Shown here: in pieces, positions 3,201-57,777 of the stretch | How the letters are laid out: each line of letters starts with the position of its first letter | How positions within the stretch are numbered: the first letter of the stretch is position 1 | Assembly: GCA_051117335.1 (NCBI GenBank) | Contig: JBNPEB010000009.1 | Location: 138,058 to 202,057, forward strand | Direction of reading: 5' to 3' | Origin: Elainellaceae cyanobacterium | Lineage (GTDB): Bacteria; Cyanobacteriota; Cyanobacteriia; CAZCXK01 | Length of the DNA: 64,000 nt | Made by a program: the position numbers and the translations under genes | The notes under the pieces: model-generated | Seen by the model: only the letters and a program-made list of their open reading frames with translations | The model's database searches: none | What the model was told of the DNA's origin: nothing

Positions 3201-4435
3201 GTTTGAAAACCCTGCAAGGGCATAGTAATTGGGTGTGGTCGGTTGCATGCAGCCGTTTATCAAAGAAAGCCGCTTCAAATGACACAGCATCTCAAAAGTC
3301 ACTTGGATTGATCCTTGCCAGTGGGGCTGATGATGAAGCGGTAAAATTTTGGGATCTGCAAACAGGTCAATGCTTAAAAACATTGCAGGGATATCGAGAT
3401 TATGCCTGGTCTATCTCATGGCATCCAAAGGGGCAAATGCTTGCGAGTGGTGGAGCCAGCCAGGTTGTGCGGATTTGGGATACCCACACGGGGCAGTGCA
3501 TTCGAACGCTAGAGGGGCATGATGACTGGGTCTATGCTGTTGCCTACAGTCCAACCTATGAGGAATTCTCAGACGAATTTGATTCCTTACTTGCTAGTGG
3601 TTCCCGCAACTATACGGCGATAGTATGGACGGTGCCAATCTCGGAAACAGGCCAAGAGCACGGGACAGAACCGCCCAAAAGCGAGTGTTGGAAAACGATT
3701 AAAGGATATCAAAATGTGATCTGGTGTGTGGCTTGGAATCCCAATCGACCTCTGCTTGCCGTTGGTAGCATGGACGGTGCGATCCGGTTTTGGGCAACCG
3801 ACACTGGACAGTGTATTCAGACACTGGACGAGCATCGGGGTTGGGTCATGGATATAGACTGGAGCACAGATGGACACATCCTTGCAAGTAGCAGTCAAGA
3901 TAAAACCGTCAAACTCTGGAACAGTCAGACAGGACAATGTCTCAACACCTTAGAGGGGCACGAGCTGGATATCTGGGCTGTTGCTTGGAATCCACACCAG
4001 GCATTAGTTGCAAGTGGTTCATTTGATAAAACGGTGAAACTCTGGAACCCTGATAGCGGTGACTGCCTGCAAACTTTATGCGGACATGCTTCTGGAGTTC
4101 TCTCGATCGCCTGGAGTCCAGACGGCAACACTCTGGCCAGTGGTAGTTCTGACAATACGATTCGACTTTGGAGTGTGGAAACAGGAAGATGTCTCAGAAC
4201 CCTTGAGGGGCACCATAATTGGGTGATGTCTGTGTCTTTCGCTTCAACGGGTGATGTTTTGGCAAGCAGCAGTCAGGATGAAACGATTCGACTCTGGGAC
4301 TGGAAGACAGGTCAGTGTTTGAAGGTGCTGAGAGCCACTCGCCCGTATGAAGGCATGAACATTACCGGCGTCACGGGGTTAACTGAGGCTCAAAAATCGA
4401 CGCTCAGGGCATTAGGGGCGATCGAAGTCAGTTAG
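275..4435 (+). CDS. STAND-type signalling NTPase: N-terminal SARP/BTAD DNA-binding domain, central NB-ARC/AAA ATPase, C-terminal WD40 beta-propeller repeats (AfsR-like)
   Basis: ORF 239-4435; ATG at 275 (MSLVLRIQVLGEL) preceded by GGAAGAG; SARP-like N-terminus; Walker A GIGGIGKT (nt 1189-1212); Walker B CLVVLDNLE; about 14 WD40 repeats (GHxNWVxSVAWSPDGxxLASGSxDxTIKLWD) from nt ~2440 to 4300. Confidence 0.85.
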   Translation: MSLVLRIQVLGELFITYGDRPLAGITTARSQALLAYLLLHRHTPQPRQRIAFDLWRDSVDAQARSNLRKELSYLRRDLPDANSFLLAETKTLQWSPTAPFMLDVLDFENAVNAAEQTTDLNQARSLLERAVQLYQGDLLPSCEDEWIVPERERLRQMRGRTVEQLIDVLKTQQDYRTAIGYAQQLLRIDSLNESTYASLMQLHSLSGDRASALQVYYQCMATLRDELGIDPSSTTRDLYQRILSEDEPSEESSIISVSPRSTSSAPYHDWGDAIDVSVFYGCDTERSILHQWIVHNGCRLVLLLGIGGIGKTALAVKLAQDVQAEFECVIWRSLRNAPPLETLLADLVLFLSNQQDTTADVERFIHWLRMRRCLVVLDNLETIFQAGDRAGQYRPNYEAYGELFRALGELQHQSCVILTSREKPAEIATLEGAAAVRTLQLSGSLDTAMALIESRNLFGSEADKQLLARQYGCNPLALKIVASSIQDLFDGDIDQFLQQNAIFFSGTRQLLEEQFERLSALEQTIMIWLAINREWTAIAELADDILSPVSRASLLEALQSLSWRSLIEKRSGYYTQQPVVMEYVTHCLVEQITDELLTKQLNRFNQYALIKTTANDYVRESQTRLILAEVAGKLRHAIGDSVRLEQQLWAILAVLHAEASARSDYAVGNLLNLCCYLEMNLTGYDFSNLKIRHAYLRKANLHHVNLQNSDLTHSTFSQMLGGVLAVAFSPSGQLLATGDNRGQVQVWRVADGQLLLTLADIPTNIYSVVWSPDGEILASGSGDHTIKLWPVSTGQCLKTLQGHTNWILSLAWSPDGKILASGSQDSTVRYWDTSTGQCLKRLNHAGAAWCVAWSPDSQILASGGTGGTINLWDTSGRPYLESFSGHRDVVWALDWHPEGQILASSSSDQSIKLWDISRLSTPRNSTKERLSKECLRTLNGHSNWVLSVAWTPDGQFLVSGSADHTIRLWDKQDGHCLKTLQGHSNWVWSVACSRLSKKAASNDTASQKSLGLILASGADDEAVKFWDLQTGQCLKTLQGYRDYAWSISWHPKGQMLASGGASQVVRIWDTHTGQCIRTLEGHDDWVYAVAYSPTYEEFSDEFDSLLASGSRNYTAIVWTVPISETGQEHGTEPPKSECWKTIKGYQNVIWCVAWNPNRPLLAVGSMDGAIRFWATDTGQCIQTLDEHRGWVMDIDWSTDGHILASSSQDKTVKLWNSQTGQCLNTLEGHELDIWAVAWNPHQALVASGSFDKTVKLWNPDSGDCLQTLCGHASGVLSIAWSPDGNTLASGSSDNTIRLWSVETGRCLRTLEGHHNWVMSVSFASTGDVLASSSQDETIRLWDWKTGQCLKVLRATRPYEGMNITGVTGLTEAQKSTLRALGAIEVS

Positions 4436-5146
4436 CTTGATGGTATTTCTTAATAAATCCTGCTATTCAAGTAATCTAGCTTTTTCGCCTTTTCCTAACC
4501 TTAGTCAATCAAGAGTTGACGCCTTGGGAGCGCTTTGGGAGCGCTTTGGGATCACGTGGCTAGTTAGGCTAATACAAATTCTAGAAAGTTAGCTGTAGGG
4601 CAAAGCGTCTCCTGCCAATCAAATTGAGTTGGCTAATTATAGCTTCAGTCTCCTTATTCGTTAATCTAATATGACCCTACGGCTCAGGTTTGTGAGGTGA
4701 AGCTCAAATTAAATCTAACCGAGGATTTTATGGACTTTTATTTGATTGATAAATGACTCATTTTAAGCTGTCAAAATTGATCTAAAATCCCAAATAAAAA
4801 GGCTTATTAATTAATTTATAACAGCAAAACTGCCCGCCAAATTAAGGTTTGACGGGGAATTTGGCATGTGAATATTCGAGGAAAACTTGGCTTTTTTCAA
4901 ATAGATAAATCATAGGTTTTCATGTCAGAGAGTTCTCAAAAAAATTTCGAATCTTCTCGATTTCTTCTCGATCTATTTCTAATCTGATAATCAAGAATCA
5001 ATCAAATACAAATTGATGTCTATTCTTGGGATAAATCAGATGAAAGATTTCTGAAAGATAATCCAGACTCAATTTAGAGAATGGATAGTTTCAAATCTTT
5101 TAGCTCCCAATATTAGGTATCAGTTCATCATCACTGGAGGAAAATC

Positions 5147-6750: not shown

Positions 6751-8238
6751 ATGGCTCGTCAACGATGGGCATCACGGCAAATCTTTGTGTTGGCTGCAAT
6801 CGGTTCAGCGGTCGGCTTGGGGAACGTGTGGCGATTTCCCTACTTAGCTGGCAAATATGGCGGAGGCGCTTTTCTAGTTCCCTATCTATTGGCATTCATT
6901 CTACTGGGCGTGCCGCTGTTGATTCTGGAAATCGCGATTGGTCAAAAAATGCAGCAGGGAGCCATTCACTCATTTCGCAAGCTGCATCCTGCCTTTGGCG
7001 GCATTGGATTAATGGCGATCGCCTCTTGCCTCTTCGTGGGATCTTACTATGCCGTTGTCATCGCCTGGTGTTTGATTTACCTGGTCAAGTCCTTTAGCAT
7101 TCCTTGGGCAGGAGGAGCAGAAGTATACTTCTTTCAAGATATCTTGCAGATTAACGAACATGTACAGCTTTTCGATCGCGTGAATCCTCCTATCCTTTTG
7201 GCTCTTGCCGCCGTCTGGATTGCGATTTACTTCTGCATCTGGAAAGGAACCCAAAGTGTTAGCAAAGTTGTTTTCTATAGTGTCCCGATTCCGGTCGTCA
7301 TTCTTGGCATTTTGCTAGTTCGAGCTGTTACATTGCCCGGTTTCTGGCAAGGGTGGCAGCTTTATTTGACACCGATCTGGAGTGTATTGGTAGCTCCTGA
7401 TGTCTGGACTGCCGCCTGCACTCAGATTTTCTTCACTCTGTCGGTCGGCTTTGGCGCCATGCTCACCTACGGCAGCTACAAAGACGAACAGGAAGATATC
7501 GTCAAAGATGCTTGGATAGCGGCTCTCATTAACAGTGGCACTAGTTTGTTTGCAGGCTTCGTAGTGTTTGCTGTGTTGGGACATATGGCTTGGATCGCCG
7601 ACACGCCTGTGTCAGACCTGGCTGCATCGGGTCCCGGATTGGCGTTTGTGGTCTTTCCCGAAGCGCTTAGCCTCATGCCTCTATCAGGACTGTTTAGCGC
7701 TCTGTTTTTCTTGATGCTGGTATCTCTGGGGATTGATAGCGCTTTTTCGATTGTGGAGCCAATCATCGCAGTTGTGCGCGATCGCCATCCCCAACTCTCA
7801 ATCTCCCATGTAGCAGCCTGGATTTGTCTACTACTGTTTGGCATCGGAGTCCTGTTTACAACCCGGTCTGGTCTTTACTTCCTCGACATTGTGGATCACT
7901 TTGTTACCCATTACGATATAGCGCTTGTGGGTATTGGGCAGGCTCTCCTAGCAGGCTGGGTGGTTGGAGCTGAATCGTTGCGCCGCTATATCAATCAAAT
8001 CAGCGATTGGACGGTTGGACGTTGGTGGAACATCTCAGTTCGCTGGATTGTGCCAGGTACTCTGACGATCTTGCTTGCGACTCAGCTTTCGACCGATTTG
8101 AAAACACCCTATGAAAACTATCCAGCCTGGGCATTGGCGATCGGGTGGGCAACGGTTGTGATTCCTATCCTGCTGTTTGGCTGGATGCTTGCACGCCGAC
8201 AGAAGCGCGAGTTGTCTGCGCCCCTCCACGAGGATTAA
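6751..8238 (+). CDS. Sodium-dependent transporter, neurotransmitter:sodium symporter (NSS/SNF) family
   Basis: ATG 6751 preceded by GGAGG; hallmark motif GNVWRFPYLAGKYGGGAFLVPY near the N-terminus; multi-TM throughout. Confidence 0.85.
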   Translation: MARQRWASRQIFVLAAIGSAVGLGNVWRFPYLAGKYGGGAFLVPYLLAFILLGVPLLILEIAIGQKMQQGAIHSFRKLHPAFGGIGLMAIASCLFVGSYYAVVIAWCLIYLVKSFSIPWAGGAEVYFFQDILQINEHVQLFDRVNPPILLALAAVWIAIYFCIWKGTQSVSKVVFYSVPIPVVILGILLVRAVTLPGFWQGWQLYLTPIWSVLVAPDVWTAACTQIFFTLSVGFGAMLTYGSYKDEQEDIVKDAWIAALINSGTSLFAGFVVFAVLGHMAWIADTPVSDLAASGPGLAFVVFPEALSLMPLSGLFSALFFLMLVSLGIDSAFSIVEPIIAVVRDRHPQLSISHVAAWICLLLFGIGVLFTTRSGLYFLDIVDHFVTHYDIALVGIGQALLAGWVVGAESLRRYINQISDWTVGRWWNISVRWIVPGTLTILLATQLSTDLKTPYENYPAWALAIGWATVVIPILLFGWMLARRQKRELSAPLHED

Positions 8239-10418: not shown

Positions 10419-10495
10419 CAGAAAAACCAGCTCACCATCATCTGTTCTTCAAGGAGGTGATGCCCTATGTGACTACCATCTGGGGTCTTTCCCCA

Positions 10496-10530
10496 ATCCA
10501 AAATCTAAAATCCAAAATCTAAAATCCAGA
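10496..10530. repeat. Heptanucleotide tandem repeat (AAAATCY)n, STRR-like short tandem repeat
   Basis: aatccaaaatctaaaatccaaaatctaaaatccag; a related aatccaaaatcgcaaatctaaaatcgag occurs at 54962-54990. Confidence 0.5.
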
Positions 10531-10570: not shown

Positions 10571-12577
10571 ATGGCACTCGAAGATCTCAGAGCAATTGAC
10601 TTTGATGACATTGTTTCCGTTACTGAAGCTGAAAACTTTGCCGAAAACATCACGAATGGTTCATTTCGTACTGCCGAAGACCTAGGCGATATCACCGATT
10701 TGACACGAGGGGTTTCTGGCACGATAGAAGCAAGGGCTGCAATCGGAAACGCTAGCGACTTTATTGATACCTACAAGTTCACCGTCGATGAGCCCACCCA
10801 ATTCAACGCGATTCTAGACACCCTCGATCCTCAGCGTCAGGAACAGGTGGTCCTGCGCCTGTTCAAAGACTTTAATGGGGATGGGGTTTTTAATTTGGAC
10901 GGCCCCACGAGATTCTCTGATTTGCTACAAGGCACAGCCTTTCGAGGTCCCGAAGATACTATTGCGTTTGATCGGCTCGATCCAGGGGAATATCTTCTAC
11001 AGGTCTCCAGCCAGGTTGTAAACGATCCGATCGACTATCAAATCAAATTCGAAGCTCCGGAACTGGATACCGCCCAGCTTAACCTTGACCTGAGAAATAT
11101 CATTGCTGAAGATGATTTGAGCAGTGGACAATCGCCCATTCGATTTGAAGCTGAAATTGCAGGACAGGTGTTTGAGCAACGATTTGAGCAGGATTTTCAA
11201 AGGACTATTTTACCTGTTCAAGTTGACCCGAACGAGCGGGCGTTTGATATCAAACTTCGAGCCTTCAGGCTAAATGCCAACGGGACTGAAAGTCGGCTTG
11301 ATTTGGATAAACGTCGGGGAGACCTGGAGTTTGATGCCACGTTTGATACGTTGGGTGAAAAGTTGTTCAAGATAGGAGCGGGGATTAACGTCAATGAAAA
11401 TCAGGGATTTGTACAGATTGCCCGTGGTGATGAACGCGGCAATGAAGTAAGAGACGGATTTCTCAGCTTGCGCGTGTCCTATGACACCACTGCCGATCTC
11501 GATAATCCAGGGAACGATACTCCTGGCAACGATGATCCAGGTAACGATGCGCCTCAAATCCCGGACCCAGACAGTGTTTTGATTATCGGGACCGATCAGG
11601 ATGATGTCCTTGATGGGAATGAGCGAGGGAACCGCATGTTTGGCCTCCAGGGTAATGACACTCTAAATGGCAACGGCGGCAACGATATCCTCCAAGGGGC
11701 AGGCAATCCTGAAATTGCCACGACTGTTGGTGAAGGAGAAATCGATCGCCTCAATGGTGGTGCAGGGCGAGATACCTTTGTCCTCCACACCAACCGGGGC
11801 ATGACCGTGCTCTACGACGAGGGCGATCGCCGCAATCCTGGCAAACAAGACTTCGCTATCATCGAAGACTTCAACAAAAATCAGGACACCATCGAGTTGG
11901 CAGGCTCCCGCGAGGAGTACTTCATTAGCCGCTCCAACGTACGAAAGATTGCTGATGGTCGCGCCATCTTCCGCGATACCGATAATGATGGTCGCCTCCG
12001 AAAAGGGCGTGATGAGCTGATTGCGGTCGTTGAAGGAGTCAACAATCTCTCTCTAAATGACCTAGAGTTTATCGACATTCCGGTCACGATCGGCACCAAT
12101 CAGGCTGAACGACTTCAGGGCACAGGTCAAGATGGCATTCTCAATGGTCGGGGTAAGCGTGACATTATCAGTGCTAAAGGGGGAAATGATATCGTCCTGG
12201 GCGGTAACGGCAATGATGTGTTGAATGGCGGCAGCGGCGATGACATCCTCGATGGTGGCAAGGGTCGTGACCAATATCGCGGACAGGGTGGCAGCGATGT
12301 CTTTGTGATTCGAGAAGGTCAGGGGCGCGATCGCATTCTCGACTTCAAAGATGGCGTGGATGTCATCGGTCTTGCCAAAGGGTTGGAGTTTGAAGACCTC
12401 AGCTTCAATCAGCAGGGCAACAACACCCTGATTCGCGTCGAAGACGAAAAGCTCGCCATTGTCAAAGGCGTTGCGGTTGATCAACTGAGCGCTGAAGACT
12501 TTGTCTCCGTTGACTACACCCGCTTTGAAGGAATGCGAGTGCCCGTCGTGTTGGGTGTTGAACCAACGGTGGTATAG
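10571..12577 (+). CDS. Large secreted calcium-binding protein with RTX-type repeats and PGND tandem repeats
   Basis: ATG 10571 with AAAGGAGA RBS; GTDQDDVLDGNERGNRMFGLQGNDTLNGNGGNDILQG and GGNGNDVLNGGSGDDILDGGKGRD beta-roll motifs; PGNDTPGNDDPGNDAP from a 15-bp DNA repeat near 11506-11553. Confidence 0.75.
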   Translation: MALEDLRAIDFDDIVSVTEAENFAENITNGSFRTAEDLGDITDLTRGVSGTIEARAAIGNASDFIDTYKFTVDEPTQFNAILDTLDPQRQEQVVLRLFKDFNGDGVFNLDGPTRFSDLLQGTAFRGPEDTIAFDRLDPGEYLLQVSSQVVNDPIDYQIKFEAPELDTAQLNLDLRNIIAEDDLSSGQSPIRFEAEIAGQVFEQRFEQDFQRTILPVQVDPNERAFDIKLRAFRLNANGTESRLDLDKRRGDLEFDATFDTLGEKLFKIGAGINVNENQGFVQIARGDERGNEVRDGFLSLRVSYDTTADLDNPGNDTPGNDDPGNDAPQIPDPDSVLIIGTDQDDVLDGNERGNRMFGLQGNDTLNGNGGNDILQGAGNPEIATTVGEGEIDRLNGGAGRDTFVLHTNRGMTVLYDEGDRRNPGKQDFAIIEDFNKNQDTIELAGSREEYFISRSNVRKIADGRAIFRDTDNDGRLRKGRDELIAVVEGVNNLSLNDLEFIDIPVTIGTNQAERLQGTGQDGILNGRGKRDIISAKGGNDIVLGGNGNDVLNGGSGDDILDGGKGRDQYRGQGGSDVFVIREGQGRDRILDFKDGVDVIGLAKGLEFEDLSFNQQGNNTLIRVEDEKLAIVKGVAVDQLSAEDFVSVDYTRFEGMRVPVVLGVEPTVV

Positions 12578-51791: not shown

Positions 51792-53756
51792 ATGGCACGC
51801 ACCATTTTTATGCGCCGACGGAGGCACGTCGAGAGCAGGATTTTGGTTAAAGAAACCGACGGGTTTGAGCACAAAGCCCGCATACGAAACAGGCATGACG
51901 GGCCAGTCCTCAGGACGCGGAATATGATGCTGCCCAAAGGTATACCACAGTACAACATCCGTGTTTTCAATGGAGCGGTTGGCTTGGGTCCATTTGGGTA
52001 GCCCGTCTCCCCCCGGGTGCTGATTGGGATAGTCACCGGCCGGATATTTTTCATCCGAGCTGTATGGAGTTGCCCAAACGTTTTTGGTGATGAAGGTTGC
52101 TCGCTTCGTAACGCTGGCTTCGGGATGGGCAAACGAGAGGACGGTATCTCCGGGAATGAGCTTATACCCCACCGGATTTCCGACGCTGTTAAGTTTTGAC
52201 GGGTTCATGACCTTCCAATAGCGTCCCTTAAATGGGTCAATGGTGCGTTGAGCCTCTTGCTCAGTCGCTAGCAGCGTTGATTTAGCGACACACGCATTGC
52301 CGTGAGGATTTTCAGGCCCTAGAGGCAGCGGTTCAGTATTGACTTCATAAACAGAGTTGGTTTGCCCGTCAACGGCCATATCCATCCGCACGTTAAAGAA
52401 GTGTTGATGGATATGCCCCACTAATTGAGGCGCTAATAATTCGCCATGCTGAGGCGTTTCACCCGGGGCGATCGCCGATGTGTTGACAATTCCCGTGAGT
52501 TTAACTTCAAACTGAATCGTACCGTCTTGATAGAAATACCAGTAAAACCCGTATTCATAATTGCCTACGGTAGCGATAAACGAGACCACCAGTCGCCGCG
52601 ATCGCCTGACCTCTGTATGCTCAGTCCGCCAATCCATATGCTTCCAAAGAATGCCAAAGTCTTCTTCATGCATACAAATAGCGTTTTCAATGGTGGCAAC
52701 CTCTCCCTGGCTGTTGGACAAGAAGGCGTCAAAATACCGAATCTCACCCAAACAATCACAGCCCAGTTTTAACGAATTTGCCAACATGCCGATGCCATAC
52801 TCACCGACATCGAAGGCATTTTTTCGGTAGTGATTTGAGTCGGGCACCCCCGGATCGTTGTATGGCACGACCATTTCTGCCAGCGACGCCCGATAGATAA
52901 TAGAGCGAATGCGCCCTTGGTCTTCATAGCCGATGTCATAGAGCACCAGCCCCTCACGAGGCGTGAATCCAATGCGGAAATGCCATTTTTGCCAATAGAC
53001 CTTGTAGCCGTCAACTTGAAAACTCGGACCCTCTGGCTGAATGATATCTAGGGGCTTTAAATCAGTGCGAAATTGCGGAATGTAGTCGCTGGCATAGTTT
53101 CCTGGCTCAGGGGGTAACGGGACAATGCCATAGTCTTCAACCTTAATAACGGTCATAGTATTGAGGTCAACCACAGGCACGACGCCTTCGATGGGTCGGG
53201 CGTAGCCGTTATCATTGGGTTCTGACCGAATCCAGCAAAATGCCCGTGAGAGCCTTAGTCCCTTTTCGCTGTCGATACCAAAGTTACCGGCTGACCACGG
53301 GTCAACCATAACCAAATCAACGTCGGTAATGCCGCGCTTTTTTAAAGCCTGTTGAAAGTCAGGATTCGCTTTAACGGCTGCTTCGCATTCTAAAAATTCA
53401 TCGAGCATGATTGACGGCTGCACGTCTGGAATATGAGTCCAAGACACGATGCGCTGTTCGGTGATAGAGGCGATCGCCTCGTATGTGTTTCCTGTAGCGT
53501 TATCGAGCAAGATAACAAACGCTTCTCGATTAATGGAATCACCTGGCTTAAACGAGCGAATCACCGATTTAGGAGGTTCATTTAGAACCACAGTGGCAAA
53601 CCGAACGCGATCGCCAAACTGGGGATGAGTTGTCACGATTGCAACAGTTGCCGCAATTTCCTCGGGTGAAAGTGGATCAAGCGGATGCTGCCCTGTGATC
53701 GTTTGACTCAAATGGTTGGGTAGCGGCGTGGTCGTCATGGTTGTTCTCTCAATCAA
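51774..53756 (-). CDS. Copper-containing primary amine oxidase (TPQ cofactor)
   Basis: TPQ consensus region TVGNYEYGFYWYFYQDGTI; Cu-ligand His motifs; 660 aa. Confidence 0.9.
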   Translation of the reverse strand: MIERTTMTTTPLPNHLSQTITGQHPLDPLSPEEIAATVAIVTTHPQFGDRVRFATVVLNEPPKSVIRSFKPGDSINREAFVILLDNATGNTYEAIASITEQRIVSWTHIPDVQPSIMLDEFLECEAAVKANPDFQQALKKRGITDVDLVMVDPWSAGNFGIDSEKGLRLSRAFCWIRSEPNDNGYARPIEGVVPVVDLNTMTVIKVEDYGIVPLPPEPGNYASDYIPQFRTDLKPLDIIQPEGPSFQVDGYKVYWQKWHFRIGFTPREGLVLYDIGYEDQGRIRSIIYRASLAEMVVPYNDPGVPDSNHYRKNAFDVGEYGIGMLANSLKLGCDCLGEIRYFDAFLSNSQGEVATIENAICMHEEDFGILWKHMDWRTEHTEVRRSRRLVVSFIATVGNYEYGFYWYFYQDGTIQFEVKLTGIVNTSAIAPGETPQHGELLAPQLVGHIHQHFFNVRMDMAVDGQTNSVYEVNTEPLPLGPENPHGNACVAKSTLLATEQEAQRTIDPFKGRYWKVMNPSKLNSVGNPVGYKLIPGDTVLSFAHPEASVTKRATFITKNVWATPYSSDEKYPAGDYPNQHPGGDGLPKWTQANRSIENTDVVLWYTFGQHHIPRPEDWPVMPVSYAGFVLKPVGFFNQNPALDVPPSAHKNGACHSHHNP

Positions 53757-53864
53757 TAACGAAGGCTATCAACAAACCGCAGCGCGCGATGGCATGACTG
53801 CATGACTCTGACTACGCTAATGTGCTTATTGCCCATTGTTTGTGTGACACGCTACCAACCCCCC

Positions 53865-53905
53865 CTCCAAACACAAAGAAACCCGATGTGGCTAAACATC
53901 GGGTA
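53865..53905 (-). terminator. Putative intrinsic terminator downstream of aroH
   Basis: Minus-strand hairpin cccgatgtttagccacatcggg followed by tttctttgtgttt. Confidence 0.4.
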
Positions 53906-54111
53906 AGCTGCTCTATTCGTCTTTGCTCACTAGTGTTCCCTTAGCCTGAGTTTAAATTTATAGCGTTAGCCAGATTGCTTAGGATATGACTCCTGATTCA
54001 GATCCAACGCTGGAGAAGCTATCTGGCATGCAACCGCACAAAGAACAGTGGCGATTGCCATAACATGCGGGCTGAGGTTGCCTGATGCGATAGGCTGCGA
54101 TAGGCACAGGA

Positions 54112-54504
54112 TTAACTTCCAAGCCCGACTTCGGTTTTGCTCAAATCAGGACGAAGCTCTTTAGCTTGCCGCAGATAGGAGTGATGAACCGATGCTAACG
54201 GTTCAGGCACATTAACATGAATCAACACGCGGATGCAGCGCTCCAGACTGCCTTCTACATGCATCTGTTGGACATCGAGCAGAGGCACATGTTGCCAGTG
54301 GGGACGTTCGCGGGCGATCGCCGCTGGAAATACCGCATCTAGATCTCGCGTCACAGAGAAAGTGGCGCTAATTACGTGGTCTGGATTGAGATGGTTCAGA
54401 TGTTCGAGCGCATCAAGCAACTCTGATACAGCGTCTCGGATTGCTTCGATCGAATTTTCTGAGGCAGTTGTTGCACCCCGAATTGCCCGAACTCTCCACT
54501 CCAC
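54112..54504 (-). CDS. aroH: Chorismate mutase, AroH class (monofunctional)
   Basis: VRAIRGATTASENSIEAI ... VISATFSVTRDLDAVFPA ... IRVLIHVNV matches the AroH pattern; GTG at 54504 with GGAGG RBS (the longest ORF extends to TTG 54528). Confidence 0.8.
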   Translation of the reverse strand: MEWRVRAIRGATTASENSIEAIRDAVSELLDALEHLNHLNPDHVISATFSVTRDLDAVFPAAIARERPHWQHVPLLDVQQMHVEGSLERCIRVLIHVNVPEPLASVHHSYLRQAKELRPDLSKTEVGLGS

Positions 54505-54800
54505 GCCAAATTCCTCCAATAAAAGCAACGAGCTGTTCGCCGTTGATGACAGCCAAATCGCCCTCCACTCATTCCTTCACTCATTATGGATTCGCAGCAG
54601 GGTCGACGACCGATTAACAACAAGCGCCTGTGTCTATTAAACCCTACTTAGAAATTGTTACCAGAGGGTCAACAGCGCGTCTTCATAGACATATCCATTG
54701 GGAGTATCCCGAATGGGGCATTTACAGGACTTACGCAAATTCCCATTCTTGAACCTAGATTTAGCTTAGGGTGGGCACTGCCAGCCTACTGATACTTCAC

Positions 54801-54884
54801 TGCGTTCACAATTGCTAGAAATGCGTTCACATTTATTCGAAATGCGTTCGCAATGGCTAGAAATGCGTTCACAATTGCGAGAGC
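54801..54884. repeat. Four contiguous 21-bp tandem repeats (consensus TGCGTTCACAATTGCTAGAAA)
   Basis: Units at 54801-54821, 54822-54842, 54843-54863 and 54864-54884; ~300 bp upstream of aroH on the minus strand. Confidence 0.7.
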
Positions 54885-54961
54885 GTTTAGGTTTTCGTGT
54901 AATACCAATTCTTCGAAGTAAGGCTACAAATGAACAGGCTAGAACCCTTGCAAGGCTGGTG

Positions 54962-54990
54962 GCCGTCAATCCAAAATCGCAAATCTAAAA
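54962..54990. repeat. Heptamer-type short tandem repeat related to 10496-10530
   Basis: aatccaaaatcgcaaatctaaaatcgag. Confidence 0.4.
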
Positions 54991-55201
54991 TCGAGAATTG
55001 GTATAAGTGCGACCGAGGACGGTCGCGTATTCCTTAACGGTAGGGTCGCCGAGACGTTATGCTCCGCATTGCCAGGGCAAACGCACTTGATTAAACAAAA
55101 TTCGAAACACTCTCCAATGAAGGTTATTTTTTAACAACCCCTTAGTGGCAATCAGGCGATTCAAATAATGTCAGAGCACGCACGCATCAGGATACGAGAC
55201 A

Positions 55202-56020
55202 TTAGGGACGATAGAGCCAAAGCGGCAACCCACTTGTCAAAAGCTCGAATTCGAGCCAATCTGCGCCCGTTGACAGGCTGGATGACACCCGATTACCCGG
55301 CAAAAGCCGACTCAAAAATCGCTTAGGCTCCTCGATAGTAAAGCATTCAGCTTTTTCTGGATCAAGCCCTGCTAATTCTGCTGCCCAGCGACGAGCATCT
55401 TCTTCGGTGCCGAGGCGATCGACCACTCCATGCTCCAAGGCTTGCTGTCCAGTAAAAATTCGCCCATCCGCAAAACTCTTAACCGTATCAACAGCTAGAT
55501 TCCTAGCGTCAGCCACTGTTTGCACGAATTGGTCATAACTCGTGTCAATCAGTTCTTGAAGAATGCTTTGCTCAGGCTCGGTTAGCTCTCGATCAAATGC
55601 CAGAATATCTTTATAAGGTCCTGACTTGACCACTTTGAATGAAATGCCAATTTTATCGAGCAGTCGTTCAAGATTATTGCCGCGCAAGATGACACCGATA
55701 CTGCCGGTGATAGTTCCAGGATTCGCCACAATGTGCTGGGCTCCCATGCCAATGTAAACGCCTCCTGAGGCAGAAATATTGCCGAAGCTGGCAACAATCT
55801 TGACTTTTTCTCGAAGACGCTTTAAGGCGCTATATATCTCTTGGGAATCGCCCACCGTTCCACCAGGGCTATCAATCCGCAGCAAAAGAGCCGGAAATTT
55901 TCGGTCTTCGACTGTATTTAATGCGTCTAACACTCGCCGACGAGTCGATCCGGTGATCGCTCCGCTAATCTCAATTCGTGCAATTTGTTTCCGAAAGGGT
56001 GGCTTAAAGGGCCAAATCAT
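55202..56020 (-). CDS. sppA: Signal peptide peptidase SppA (S49 family, 36K type)
   Basis: ALLLRIDSPGGTVGDSQEI and catalytic-region GNISASGGVYIG motifs. Confidence 0.85.
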   Translation of the reverse strand: MIWPFKPPFRKQIARIEISGAITGSTRRRVLDALNTVEDRKFPALLLRIDSPGGTVGDSQEIYSALKRLREKVKIVASFGNISASGGVYIGMGAQHIVANPGTITGSIGVILRGNNLERLLDKIGISFKVVKSGPYKDILAFDRELTEPEQSILQELIDTSYDQFVQTVADARNLAVDTVKSFADGRIFTGQQALEHGVVDRLGTEEDARRWAAELAGLDPEKAECFTIEEPKRFLSRLLPGNRVSSSLSTGADWLEFELLTSGLPLWLYRP

Positions 56021-56330
56021 AAGTAGCTAACAACGTGAATAATTCTAAGTTTGCGATTCTAAGTTTGCGATCGCCACTGCTAATCCAGTGTGTCTCATTT
56101 ATAGCGTTCATAGAGATTCATCCCGGAAGGCTAGACTGTGGTGATATCCGAACGAACAGTTTATGCCGAAATCTATACCAACTTGAATAAAAACCCTCAA
56201 AGGAGTGATCGATCGCACAGATAACGCTTGTAAAGAGCGACACACTAGAACTTAAAATCTTAACATAATGAAATATAGGGCCATAATTAAATAGCAGGTT
56301 TAAAGAATTTCATTCTGAATATTCATATTC

Positions 56331-57371
56331 ATGCAGTTTAAGCTTACTAATTCCAAAATCCCGTTTGCCTCTCTGCTGCTCATTGCGCCTTTTTTCTTGT
56401 GGGGAACCGCAATGGTAGCAATGAAAGGCACTATCTCTCATACGACTCCACTCTTTATGGCAGGAGTACGCACGCTGCCAGCCGGAGTCTTGGTGATAGG
56501 AGGCGCAGCTTGGCTGGGGCGATCGCAGCCGAGAGGCTGGGCAGCTTGGCTCTGGATCGGGGGATTTGCCCTGATTGATGCGGTGATGTTTCAGGGATTT
56601 TTGGCAGAAGGGTTGGTAAAAACAGGTGCAGGGCTAGGGTCAGTGATGATTGACTCTCAGCCAATCGCGGTCGCTCTGATGGCTCGTTTTTTGTTTGCTG
56701 AATGGGTTGGTTTGTGGGGCTGGCTCGGCTTGACGCTGGGTATTGCCGGAATTAGTTTGTTAGGATTGCCTGACGACTGGATTGTTAGCCTAATCCGGGG
56801 TGATATTAGCTTCTTGACGTGGCAGTTTGGCAGTGATGTGGTCGAGGCTCTATTCCAGAATGGCGAGTGGCTGATGCTGCTAGCCGCCCTATCGATGGCT
56901 GCTGGAACCGTCATGATTCGGTATGTGATTCGCTTTGCTGATCCGATCATGGCAACTGGCTGGCATATGCTTATTGGAGGTGCCGTGCTGTTTGCGCTCT
57001 CAGCACAGTGGGAATCTCATCAATGGACATATTTAACCGTGTCAGACGGATTGGCACTGAGCTATGCAACGATTTTTGGAAGCGCGATCGCCTACGGATT
57101 GTTTTTCTACTTCGCATCGACCGGAAGCTTAACGAGCATCAGTTCATTAACATTTCTCACTCCCGTGTTTGCACTGCTTTTCGGCAATCTGTTTTTGGGT
57201 GAAACCTTGAGCTTCATCCAATGGATCGGGGTTTTGTTGACTTTAATTAGTATTTATTTAATTAATCAGCGAGATGCGTTATCGGCAAGGATTGGAGGGC
57301 GTCAGACAGAATGGATAGAACCTGATGATTCTCCTGCGTCTGTCGACGACGAAGCAGGCGTTTCGCTATAG
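56331..57371 (+). CDS. DMT-superfamily (EamA-like) transporter
   Basis: Ten hydrophobic helices in two EamA-like halves. Confidence 0.75.
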   Translation: MQFKLTNSKIPFASLLLIAPFFLWGTAMVAMKGTISHTTPLFMAGVRTLPAGVLVIGGAAWLGRSQPRGWAAWLWIGGFALIDAVMFQGFLAEGLVKTGAGLGSVMIDSQPIAVALMARFLFAEWVGLWGWLGLTLGIAGISLLGLPDDWIVSLIRGDISFLTWQFGSDVVEALFQNGEWLMLLAALSMAAGTVMIRYVIRFADPIMATGWHMLIGGAVLFALSAQWESHQWTYLTVSDGLALSYATIFGSAIAYGLFFYFASTGSLTSISSLTFLTPVFALLFGNLFLGETLSFIQWIGVLLTLISIYLINQRDALSARIGGRQTEWIEPDDSPASVDDEAGVSL

Positions 57372-57777
57372 TTCAGGTTCTCGCGCGATCGCTTAGGCGC
57401 AGAGCGTTGCGTCGTAGAGGCTGAATCGCGATTATTCTAGATCGTCCCGCTCTCAAACAGGGTGTAAGTAATGCGTTGCGCTATTGACAAACTCGCAAGG
57501 TTTGCACACGGTCTTGTAGAGTGTAGATGAGAAACCTTGACTCGCATCTCAATAGCGATCTAAATCGGAAATGATCTAGGTCGTTTCCGATCAAATCAAT
57601 CTAAAACAGGTTAAAAAAGAGCCAACAGGTTGTGTTTATCGTAAAACCGAATTTCAGCCAGCGATATAGTCAAGAGTCATAGTTAGGAACTTTACGAGCA
57701 ACGTTGGCGGCTCGTGCATAAATCAGGATGCATCTCAACTCAAAGTTCACGATGTTGACGCTTGGTCGTCGTCTTCA

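Follow-up and report, generated by a model that had tools for sequence, protein, structure and literature searches.

A 21-bp tandem repeat of variable copy number in the sppA-aroH spacer of Elainellaceae cyanobacteria

The DNA analyzed here, called the window throughout, is a 64-kb stretch from a MAG assigned to the cyanobacterial family Elainellaceae. Two minus-strand genes delimit the spacer of interest. The first, sppA (55202-56020), encodes a signal peptide peptidase of the S49 family with 272 amino acids (PF01343 Peptidase_S49, E=6e-55) that is 100% identical to P0001, annotated as 'MAG: signal peptide peptidase SppA [Elainellaceae cyanobacterium]'. The second, aroH (54112-54504), encodes a type I chorismate mutase with 130 amino acids (PF07736 CM_1, E=5e-46). 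The aroH open reading frame spans 54112-54528 (minus strand), but the actual start of the gene is the GTG codon at 54504, in agreement with the NCBI gene call P0124, to which the product is 100% identical over 130 amino acids. The spacer between the two genes measures 697 bp. It contains an array of 21-bp repeats that starts 297 bp upstream of aroH, with about 320 bp left between its other end and the stop codon of sppA, the upstream gene. The original prediction had placed the repeats between sppA and aroH, approximately 300 bp upstream of the latter gene on the minus strand, and both statements are borne out by the Pfam assignments and the measured distance. No tRNA or tmRNA was found in the window.

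Among all tandem repeats that TRF identified in the 64-kb window, the 21-bp array had the best score (54801-54882, 3.9 copies, 78% matches, score 115), with 0 indels and the consensus TGCGTTCACAATTGCTAGAAA. As in VNTR loci, the units are contiguous and arranged head to tail (the start-to-start spacing equals the unit length, 21), their size lies within about 10-100 bp, and their repetition is beyond chance. When up to three mismatches to the consensus were tolerated, matches in the 64-kb window were confined to the array, with 0 expected according to 100 dinucleotide-preserving shuffles. Neither the consensus nor the core motif was found elsewhere in the window. A CRISPR array was considered and rejected, as the units are contiguous, with no unique spacers between them.

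The first three units of the window array read TGCGTTCACAATTGCTAGAAA, TGCGTTCACATTTATTCGAAA and TGCGTTCGCAATGGCTAGAAA. The fourth unit, as first counted, is TGCGTTCACAATTGCGAGAGC. Its tail, GAGAGC (54879-54884), is part of a dispersed element of ~131 bp (MITE-B, discussed below) with the end GAGAGCGTTTAGG, and without this mobile-element end the unit reads TGCGTTCACAATTGC. Because the final 6 nucleotides belong to MITE-B, the array proper is a 21-bp minisatellite of 3.7 units at 54801-54878. The four contiguous repeats of the original prediction are therefore real and unique in the window, except that the fourth is in part MITE-B.

Orthologous arrays with the same 21-bp unit were found at the same site in two more genomes, at 4144-4419 of L004 (a 63-kb contig of another Elainellaceae MAG) and at 3836-3979 of L005 (GCA_051162585.1). 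All three arrays directly follow the landmark ...GGGTGGGCAC TGCC...CTACTG. The number of units at this orthologous site, with the same flanks, differs between the genomes: the window has 3.7-3.9 units, L005 has 6.9 and L004 has 12.7-13.1. These numbers derive from short-read MAG assemblies, and an assembly error is possible above all for the array of L004 with its 273 bp. The flanking coding DNA of the window is 88-93% identical to that of L004 or L005, and the three genomes represent related species, not strains; the copy-number variation observed is thus that between genomes with 7-12% divergence in coding sequences. An invariant repeat number had been named as evidence that would speak against the original prediction, and the three orthologues instead turned out to differ.

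Units were about as similar to units of other arrays (identity 0.78-0.83) as to units of their own array (0.81-0.84). Some variants are nevertheless private. An A at position 4 and, with the exception of one window unit, a T at position 15 were seen only in L004, whereas a T at position 3 and a G at position 17 were seen only in L005. A C at position 17 is frequent in L004 (7/12, versus 1/3 in the window). The L004 array also has a higher-order period of 63 bp (4.3 copies, 86% matches), which scores 407 versus 356 for the 21-bp period, and its units can be written as the string of types ABCDEFEBGHIFJ. The heterogeneity of the units, together with the array-private variants, points to an old array with continuing turnover.

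Three other contigs, from independent samples, break inside or beside the spacer or at a MITE end (L006 at its end, L007 at both ends, L008 at its start), and the L008 contig, which comes from the third member of the AroH cluster, stops 45 bp before the array. The sppA-aroH spacer is a breakpoint of short-read assemblies, a usual effect of repeats. As a practical warning, repeat numbers taken from MAGs are uncertain at this locus and need caution.

In the loci of the closest SppA homologues from outside the clade (L001, L002 and L003), the gene order EamA / SppA / AroH / copper amine oxidase is kept. The SppA proteins of these loci are 89-90% identical to that of the window at the amino acid level, and the flanking genes are 74-79% identical at the nucleotide level. 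Their sppA-aroH spacers have lengths of 141 bp (L001, L002) and about 295 bp (L003), and neither an array nor a single 21-bp unit was found in these loci. The spacers can be aligned with that of the window only over the aroH-proximal ~150 bp, and the segment from ~54656 to 55201 of the window, array included, has no counterpart in them. A degenerate two-unit pattern, used to search 185,579 species genomes (one genome per species), matched L004 only, and the same pattern had no match in JGI metagenome contigs or viral contigs. There was also no match for the window spacer in plasmids and phages, and a conserved anchor from the spacer had 0 matches in metagenome contigs. The spacer stretch of ~550 bp that holds the array is confined to one genus-level clade of the Elainellaceae.

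The original prediction had pointed to a partial palindrome in the consensus and had proposed iterated binding sites for a regulator. A conserved palindrome and regulator sites were not supported when all units were compared. The palindrome CAATTG is present in 8 of the 24 units overall and in 1 of 13 in L004, and position 11 of the unit is split between A (10 units) and T (14 units). Variants were found at 16 of the 21 positions, which leaves no strongly constrained core, and no recognition motif or dyad is conserved in every unit. The unit appears to match none of the cyanobacterial motifs for NtcA (GTA-N8-TAC), LexA, Fur, RpaB (HLR1) and CRP (TGTGA-N6-TCACA), of the last of which it has direct half-sites only.

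Sites for a putative DNA-binding protein, which might regulate aroH or belong to the architectural or nucleoid proteins, would be spaced by 21 bp on the same face of the helix and could be occupied cooperatively. An exact 21-bp period without indels in all three arrays is what one would expect of such sites, and five positions (G2, C7, A10, T12 and A19) are indeed invariant in 24/24 units, with GAAATGC.TTC as the most constant segment. The conservation of the array in three diverged genomes, next to a block of DNA (block A, see below) whose conservation exceeds that of the intergenic DNA nearby, is in line with the same idea. The overall degeneracy of the unit is not, and neither is a copy number that ranges from 3.7 to 13. 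The position relative to aroH is not fixed either, as the distance between array start and aroH start is 297 bp in the window, 276 bp in L005 and 583 bp in L004, where a mobile element intervenes. In addition, the end of the array was the target of a MITE insertion. The syntenic relatives L001-L003 regulate the same gene pair without an array, so that the array is not conserved with the gene, and the motif does not recur at other places in the 64-kb window or at other loci in the genome collection. Taken together, we consider iterated binding sites, although they are the main rival of the explanation given below, unlikely, since each defining feature of an operator array that was tested is lacking. 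A comparison was also made with iterons and operator arrays, as known from plasmid origins and tandem response-regulator boxes. These share with the 21-bp array direct repeats of about 20 bp on one helical face, but here no replication or regulator gene is nearby, copy number and position are unconstrained, most positions of the unit are degenerate, and the array is absent from syntenic relatives.

Block A (54626-54779), which separates the array from the 5' region of aroH, is non-coding and conserved, with orthologues at 3680-3832 of L004, 3985-4150 of L005 and 1-135 of L008. It is 93-94% identical among genomes in which other local intergenic DNA is 81-83% identical. In the comparison with L004, there are 9 mismatches in 154 positions and 0 gaps in block A, whereas other intergenic DNA nearby has 53 mismatches in 405 positions and 37 gap columns (p=0.015, Fisher test). 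Single-sequence folds of both strands gave no significant signal for block A, RNAalifold detected no covariation among three orthologues (a number of sequences that leaves the test almost no power), and no ORF pattern was found that would account for the conservation. Block A could contain the promoter or a regulatory region of aroH, or else an unrecognized RNA.

At the aroH-proximal end of block A, at about 54633-54655, we noted the motif TCTATTAAACCCTAC (reverse complement GTAGGGTTTAATAGA, minus strand). It is the only part of the spacer that is conserved across genera (~4855-4885 in L001, ~5000-5030 in L003); past ~54655, block A is lineage-specific like the array. The motif, about 130-150 bp ahead of the aroH start, could represent the aroH promoter (-10 region) or a regulatory motif; a simple sigma-70 scan did not pick it up.

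The location of this candidate has a bearing on phase variation, which had been suggested as another role of the repeat tract. The suggestion is supported as far as variable copy number is concerned, but not as regards phase variation in the strict sense. The array is intergenic, lies neither inside an ORF nor in a core promoter and has no promoter-like hexamers, and changes by whole units would keep both frame and helical phase. A tandem repeat in a promoter region might still switch or tune aroH by changes in copy number, since copy variation of promoter tandem repeats is documented in M. tuberculosis, where it reportedly alters promoter strength and occurs within isogenic populations too (PMC12817950). 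What the array shares with the M. tuberculosis repeats is limited to an upstream tandem repeat with variable copy number; the array has no promoter-like site and is 276-583 bp from the gene. In favor of such a switch, the array precedes aroH on the side of the coding strand, and its unit number differs between related genomes, but a consensus scan of both strands found no sigma-70-like hexamer pair in or beside it. Moreover, at least about 145 bp separate it from the segment most likely to hold the aroH promoter (54633-54655), with another ~300 bp added in L004, steps of 21 bp keep the helical phase, and the variation seen is between species-level lineages. A role of the array as a promoter-region switch of aroH would therefore seem very unlikely. 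A stack of promoters was rejected as well, with no sigma-70-like sites in the array.

The spacer is rich in small mobile elements. MITE-B, a MITE-like dispersed element (54879-55113; ~131 bp without a nested insertion), has the ends GAGAGCGTT...AACACTCT; in the window and in L004, the array is followed by GAGAGCGTTTAGG...CGAAACACTCT. The element adjoins and truncates the array in the window and adjoins it in L004 also. L004 has a second copy of MITE-B downstream of EamA (~6779-6905; 82-83% identical over aligned stretches, flanks included), without an array beside it. Empty sites for this second insertion exist in L007 and in the window (57372-57390); the empty site in L007 reads CGTTATAGGTTACG, and the occupied site in L004 CGTTATAGG-[element]-TTTACAGGTTACG. 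The L005 spacer is free of MITE-B and has a different sequence in its place, with a 17-bp hairpin. MITE-B itself contains a GC-rich hairpin, GCGACCG-AGGA-CGGTCGC (55009-55026 of the window). In both L004 copies, at 4445-4462 and ~6818-6835, the loop is TCCT and the stem is unchanged, a flip that would be the signature of a hairpin-mediated micro-inversion.

Nested in the window copy of MITE-B is an inverted-repeat element of 101 bp (54903-55003). Its terminal inverted repeats of 10 bp are perfect (TACCAATTCT/AGAATTGGTA), and the target sequence TAA is duplicated on its two sides (54900-54902 and 55004-55006). Both MITE-B copies of L004 lack it and are uninterrupted at the corresponding site (CGTGTAAGTGCG or CGTATGAGTGCG). 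Among the genomes compared, the nested copy is found in the window only and is thus insertion-polymorphic. The end of a further element of this type was identified at 1-26 of L007, beside TTA; L004 has no insertion at the corresponding site. The 101-bp element also harbors the heptamer repeat that had been reported at 54962-54990. Such a tract is present, but it is weak, is located at 54968-54998 (period 7, 4.4 copies, 75% matches, TRF score 34; AATCNAA units), and is internal to the mobile element rather than a feature of the array. A 36-bp segment, TGAAGGTTATTTTTTAACAACCCCTTAGTGGCAATC (55119-55155 of the window), is present in the window and L007 and absent from L004.

On the aroH side, the array is immediately adjoined by a degraded palindrome, TAGGGTGGGCAC-TGCCAGCCTAC (54767-54789). 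The 25-bp palindrome, GTAGGGTGGGCA-C-TGCCCACCCTAC, is intact in L005 (GGGGTGGGCACTGCCCACCC; ~3990-4012). L004 has an element of ~142 bp (L004 3832-3973), with inverted ends of 14 bp or longer, GTATGTGTTTAGCG..., inserted precisely in the middle of the palindrome, which suggests a hairpin-targeted insertion. This element and about 170 bp more lie between block A and the array in L004 only, and because of the intervening insertion, the array of L004 is 583 bp instead of ~280 bp from aroH.

With at least three MITE-like elements around it, a palindrome beside it that served as an insertion target, and an entire segment of ~550 bp that is lineage-specific, the array might itself belong to the interior or subterminal region of a mobile element, as do transposase-binding repeats at transposon ends or tandem repeats inside a MITE. 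The features typical of MITEs (inverted repeats, target duplication, extra copies and empty sites) were indeed found, but for the flanking elements (54879-55113 and 54903-55003) and not for the array, which lies outside of the mapped element boundaries. It occupies one chromosomal site in three diverged genomes, and the two-unit scan of the 185,579 species genomes returned L004 and no dispersed copies. The second MITE-B copy of L004, without adjoining array, and the neighbors of the locus, which are syntenic housekeeping genes and include no transposase or other mobile-element gene, also argue against this possibility, which we regard as highly improbable. A Tn7-like transposon end or iteron was rejected in view of the syntenic housekeeping neighbors, the single locus and the up to 13 units; to our knowledge, 13 units far exceed the repeats carried by any transposon end.

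A coding function of the array was also considered. A plus-strand frame, (L)LEMRSxL, would specify heptad repeats of a putative small protein with hydrophobic residues at positions a and d, and is part of a 58-codon ORF in the window (54812-54988, 58 aa). None of the three arrays has a stop codon in this frame, but the same is true of two others, giving three stop-free frames in total. Several common variants are synonymous in the heptad frame (TCA/TCG, CTA/CTC/CTG/TTA, CAT/CAC), and no other of the six frames has a better weighted ratio of synonymous to non-synonymous changes (33:34). Counted as distinct events, however, there are 7 synonymous versus 14 non-synonymous changes in the best frame, and permutation of the codon phase gave no significant result (p=0.10 for allele counts, p=0.93 for distinct events). 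The ORF termini are wholly different between the alleles, as the window ORF ends in the mobile element, that of L004 continues into sppA in antisense orientation, and that of L005 stops 12 codons past the array. The array-spanning ORF of L004 (176 aa) has no homologue among the 5.8 billion clusters of proteins searched, the gene calls of these MAGs do not include the ORF, and overlapping ORFs have no Pfam match. A protein-coding heptad repeat was therefore rejected on codon phase, conservation of ORF ends and homologues alike, and we regard it as extremely improbable. A structured non-coding RNA was rejected as well: Rfam had no match for 53500-56500 at E<=1, and single-sequence folds of the array on both strands gave unremarkable z-scores (-1.7 and -0.05), with no unusual folding energy.

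Together, the above observations are best explained by an intergenic minisatellite (VNTR) that is restricted to one lineage and for which no sequence-specific function can be demonstrated, a reading that we consider probable. The spacer tolerates, or even attracts, insertions, and its clade-specific stretch of ~550 bp has been a repeated target of small non-autonomous mobile elements. The number of 21-bp units would change by replication slippage, by unequal homologous recombination between units, or by both. Such a mechanism is suggested by the block duplications in L004, the unit identities of 0.78-0.84 within and between arrays and the array-private variants; the three-unit period of 63 bp in the 13-copy allele may be the footprint of the block duplications. 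A step of 21 bp is a multiple of 3 and corresponds to about two helical turns, so that frame and rotational setting of the flanks would remain unchanged. For this reason, gains and losses of units are plausibly close to neutral, and perhaps tolerated on that account.

Some observations fit less well with a neutral minisatellite. The array persists in each of the three lineages with this spacer, although their coding DNA has diverged by 7-12% and indels are abundant around the array, and under pure neutrality and the bacterial deletion bias, one might expect the array to be lost. The invariance of five unit positions in all 24 units also has to be counted on this side. A/T-rich tracts lie about 10 bp apart in the unit (positions 10-13 and 19-21), and an array for protein binding or of bent DNA would be equally compatible with the two-turn period and these spaced tracts. 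It is conceivable, but quite unlikely in our view, that selection keeps the array as a tunable architectural or protein-binding module, whose unit number would modulate aroH transcription or DNA structure. Such a module would present sites on one helical face, with phased A/T tracts, beside the conserved block A, and we give this arrangement equally little credence as a selected feature. If it were nevertheless true, the module would be a cyanobacterial counterpart of the copy-number switches formed by promoter tandem repeats that were recently described in M. tuberculosis (PMC12817950). If repeat number tuned the expression of aroH, a gene of aromatic amino-acid biosynthesis, the locus would gain in importance, but no finding here points in this direction.

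For the lineage-restricted minisatellite, the closest known kind of locus are the intergenic VNTR or minisatellite loci, such as the MIRU-VNTR loci of M. tuberculosis and MLVA markers (VNTRDB, PMC1781188). As in these loci, heterogeneous units of more than 10 bp are arranged head to tail between co-oriented genes, and copy number is variable at an orthologous site. The differences are that the array is a single locus and not an interspersed family, that it belongs to uncultured Elainellaceae, and that its variation was seen between genomes with 7-12% divergence. The elements around the array resemble MITEs and REP-like repeats in their inverted repeats, target duplications, extra copies and empty sites (PMC3184786), whereas the array has none of these features and is a neighbor of the elements and an insertion target instead. 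The spacer is a clean example of growth from ~140 bp to 600-1000 bp by nested small mobile elements and a minisatellite, and the locus is a useful marker that could discriminate Elainellaceae lineages by copy number.

A regulatory role has been proposed for short tandemly repeated (heptamer) sequences in Nostoc (bioRxiv 10.1101/2022.06.06.494920). The heptamer tracts of the window (54968-54998 and 10495-10528) are similar in that they are tandem, intergenic and present in a filamentous-type cyanobacterium. The array is not similar, with a unit of 21 instead of 7 bp and without dispersed copies, and the tract at 54968-54998 differs from the cyanobacterial heptamers in being cargo of the 101-bp mobile element, away from a start codon or promoter. 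When the spacer was compared with the window by BLAST, only this heptamer tract was found to recur, namely at 10495-10528. This second heptamer or 14-mer tract consists of 2.4 copies of AATCCAAAATCTAA with 100% matches, and an ATG at 10572 follows after ~35 bp. Its similarity to the tract in the 101-bp element is 88%, yet it lacks the inverted repeats of that element.
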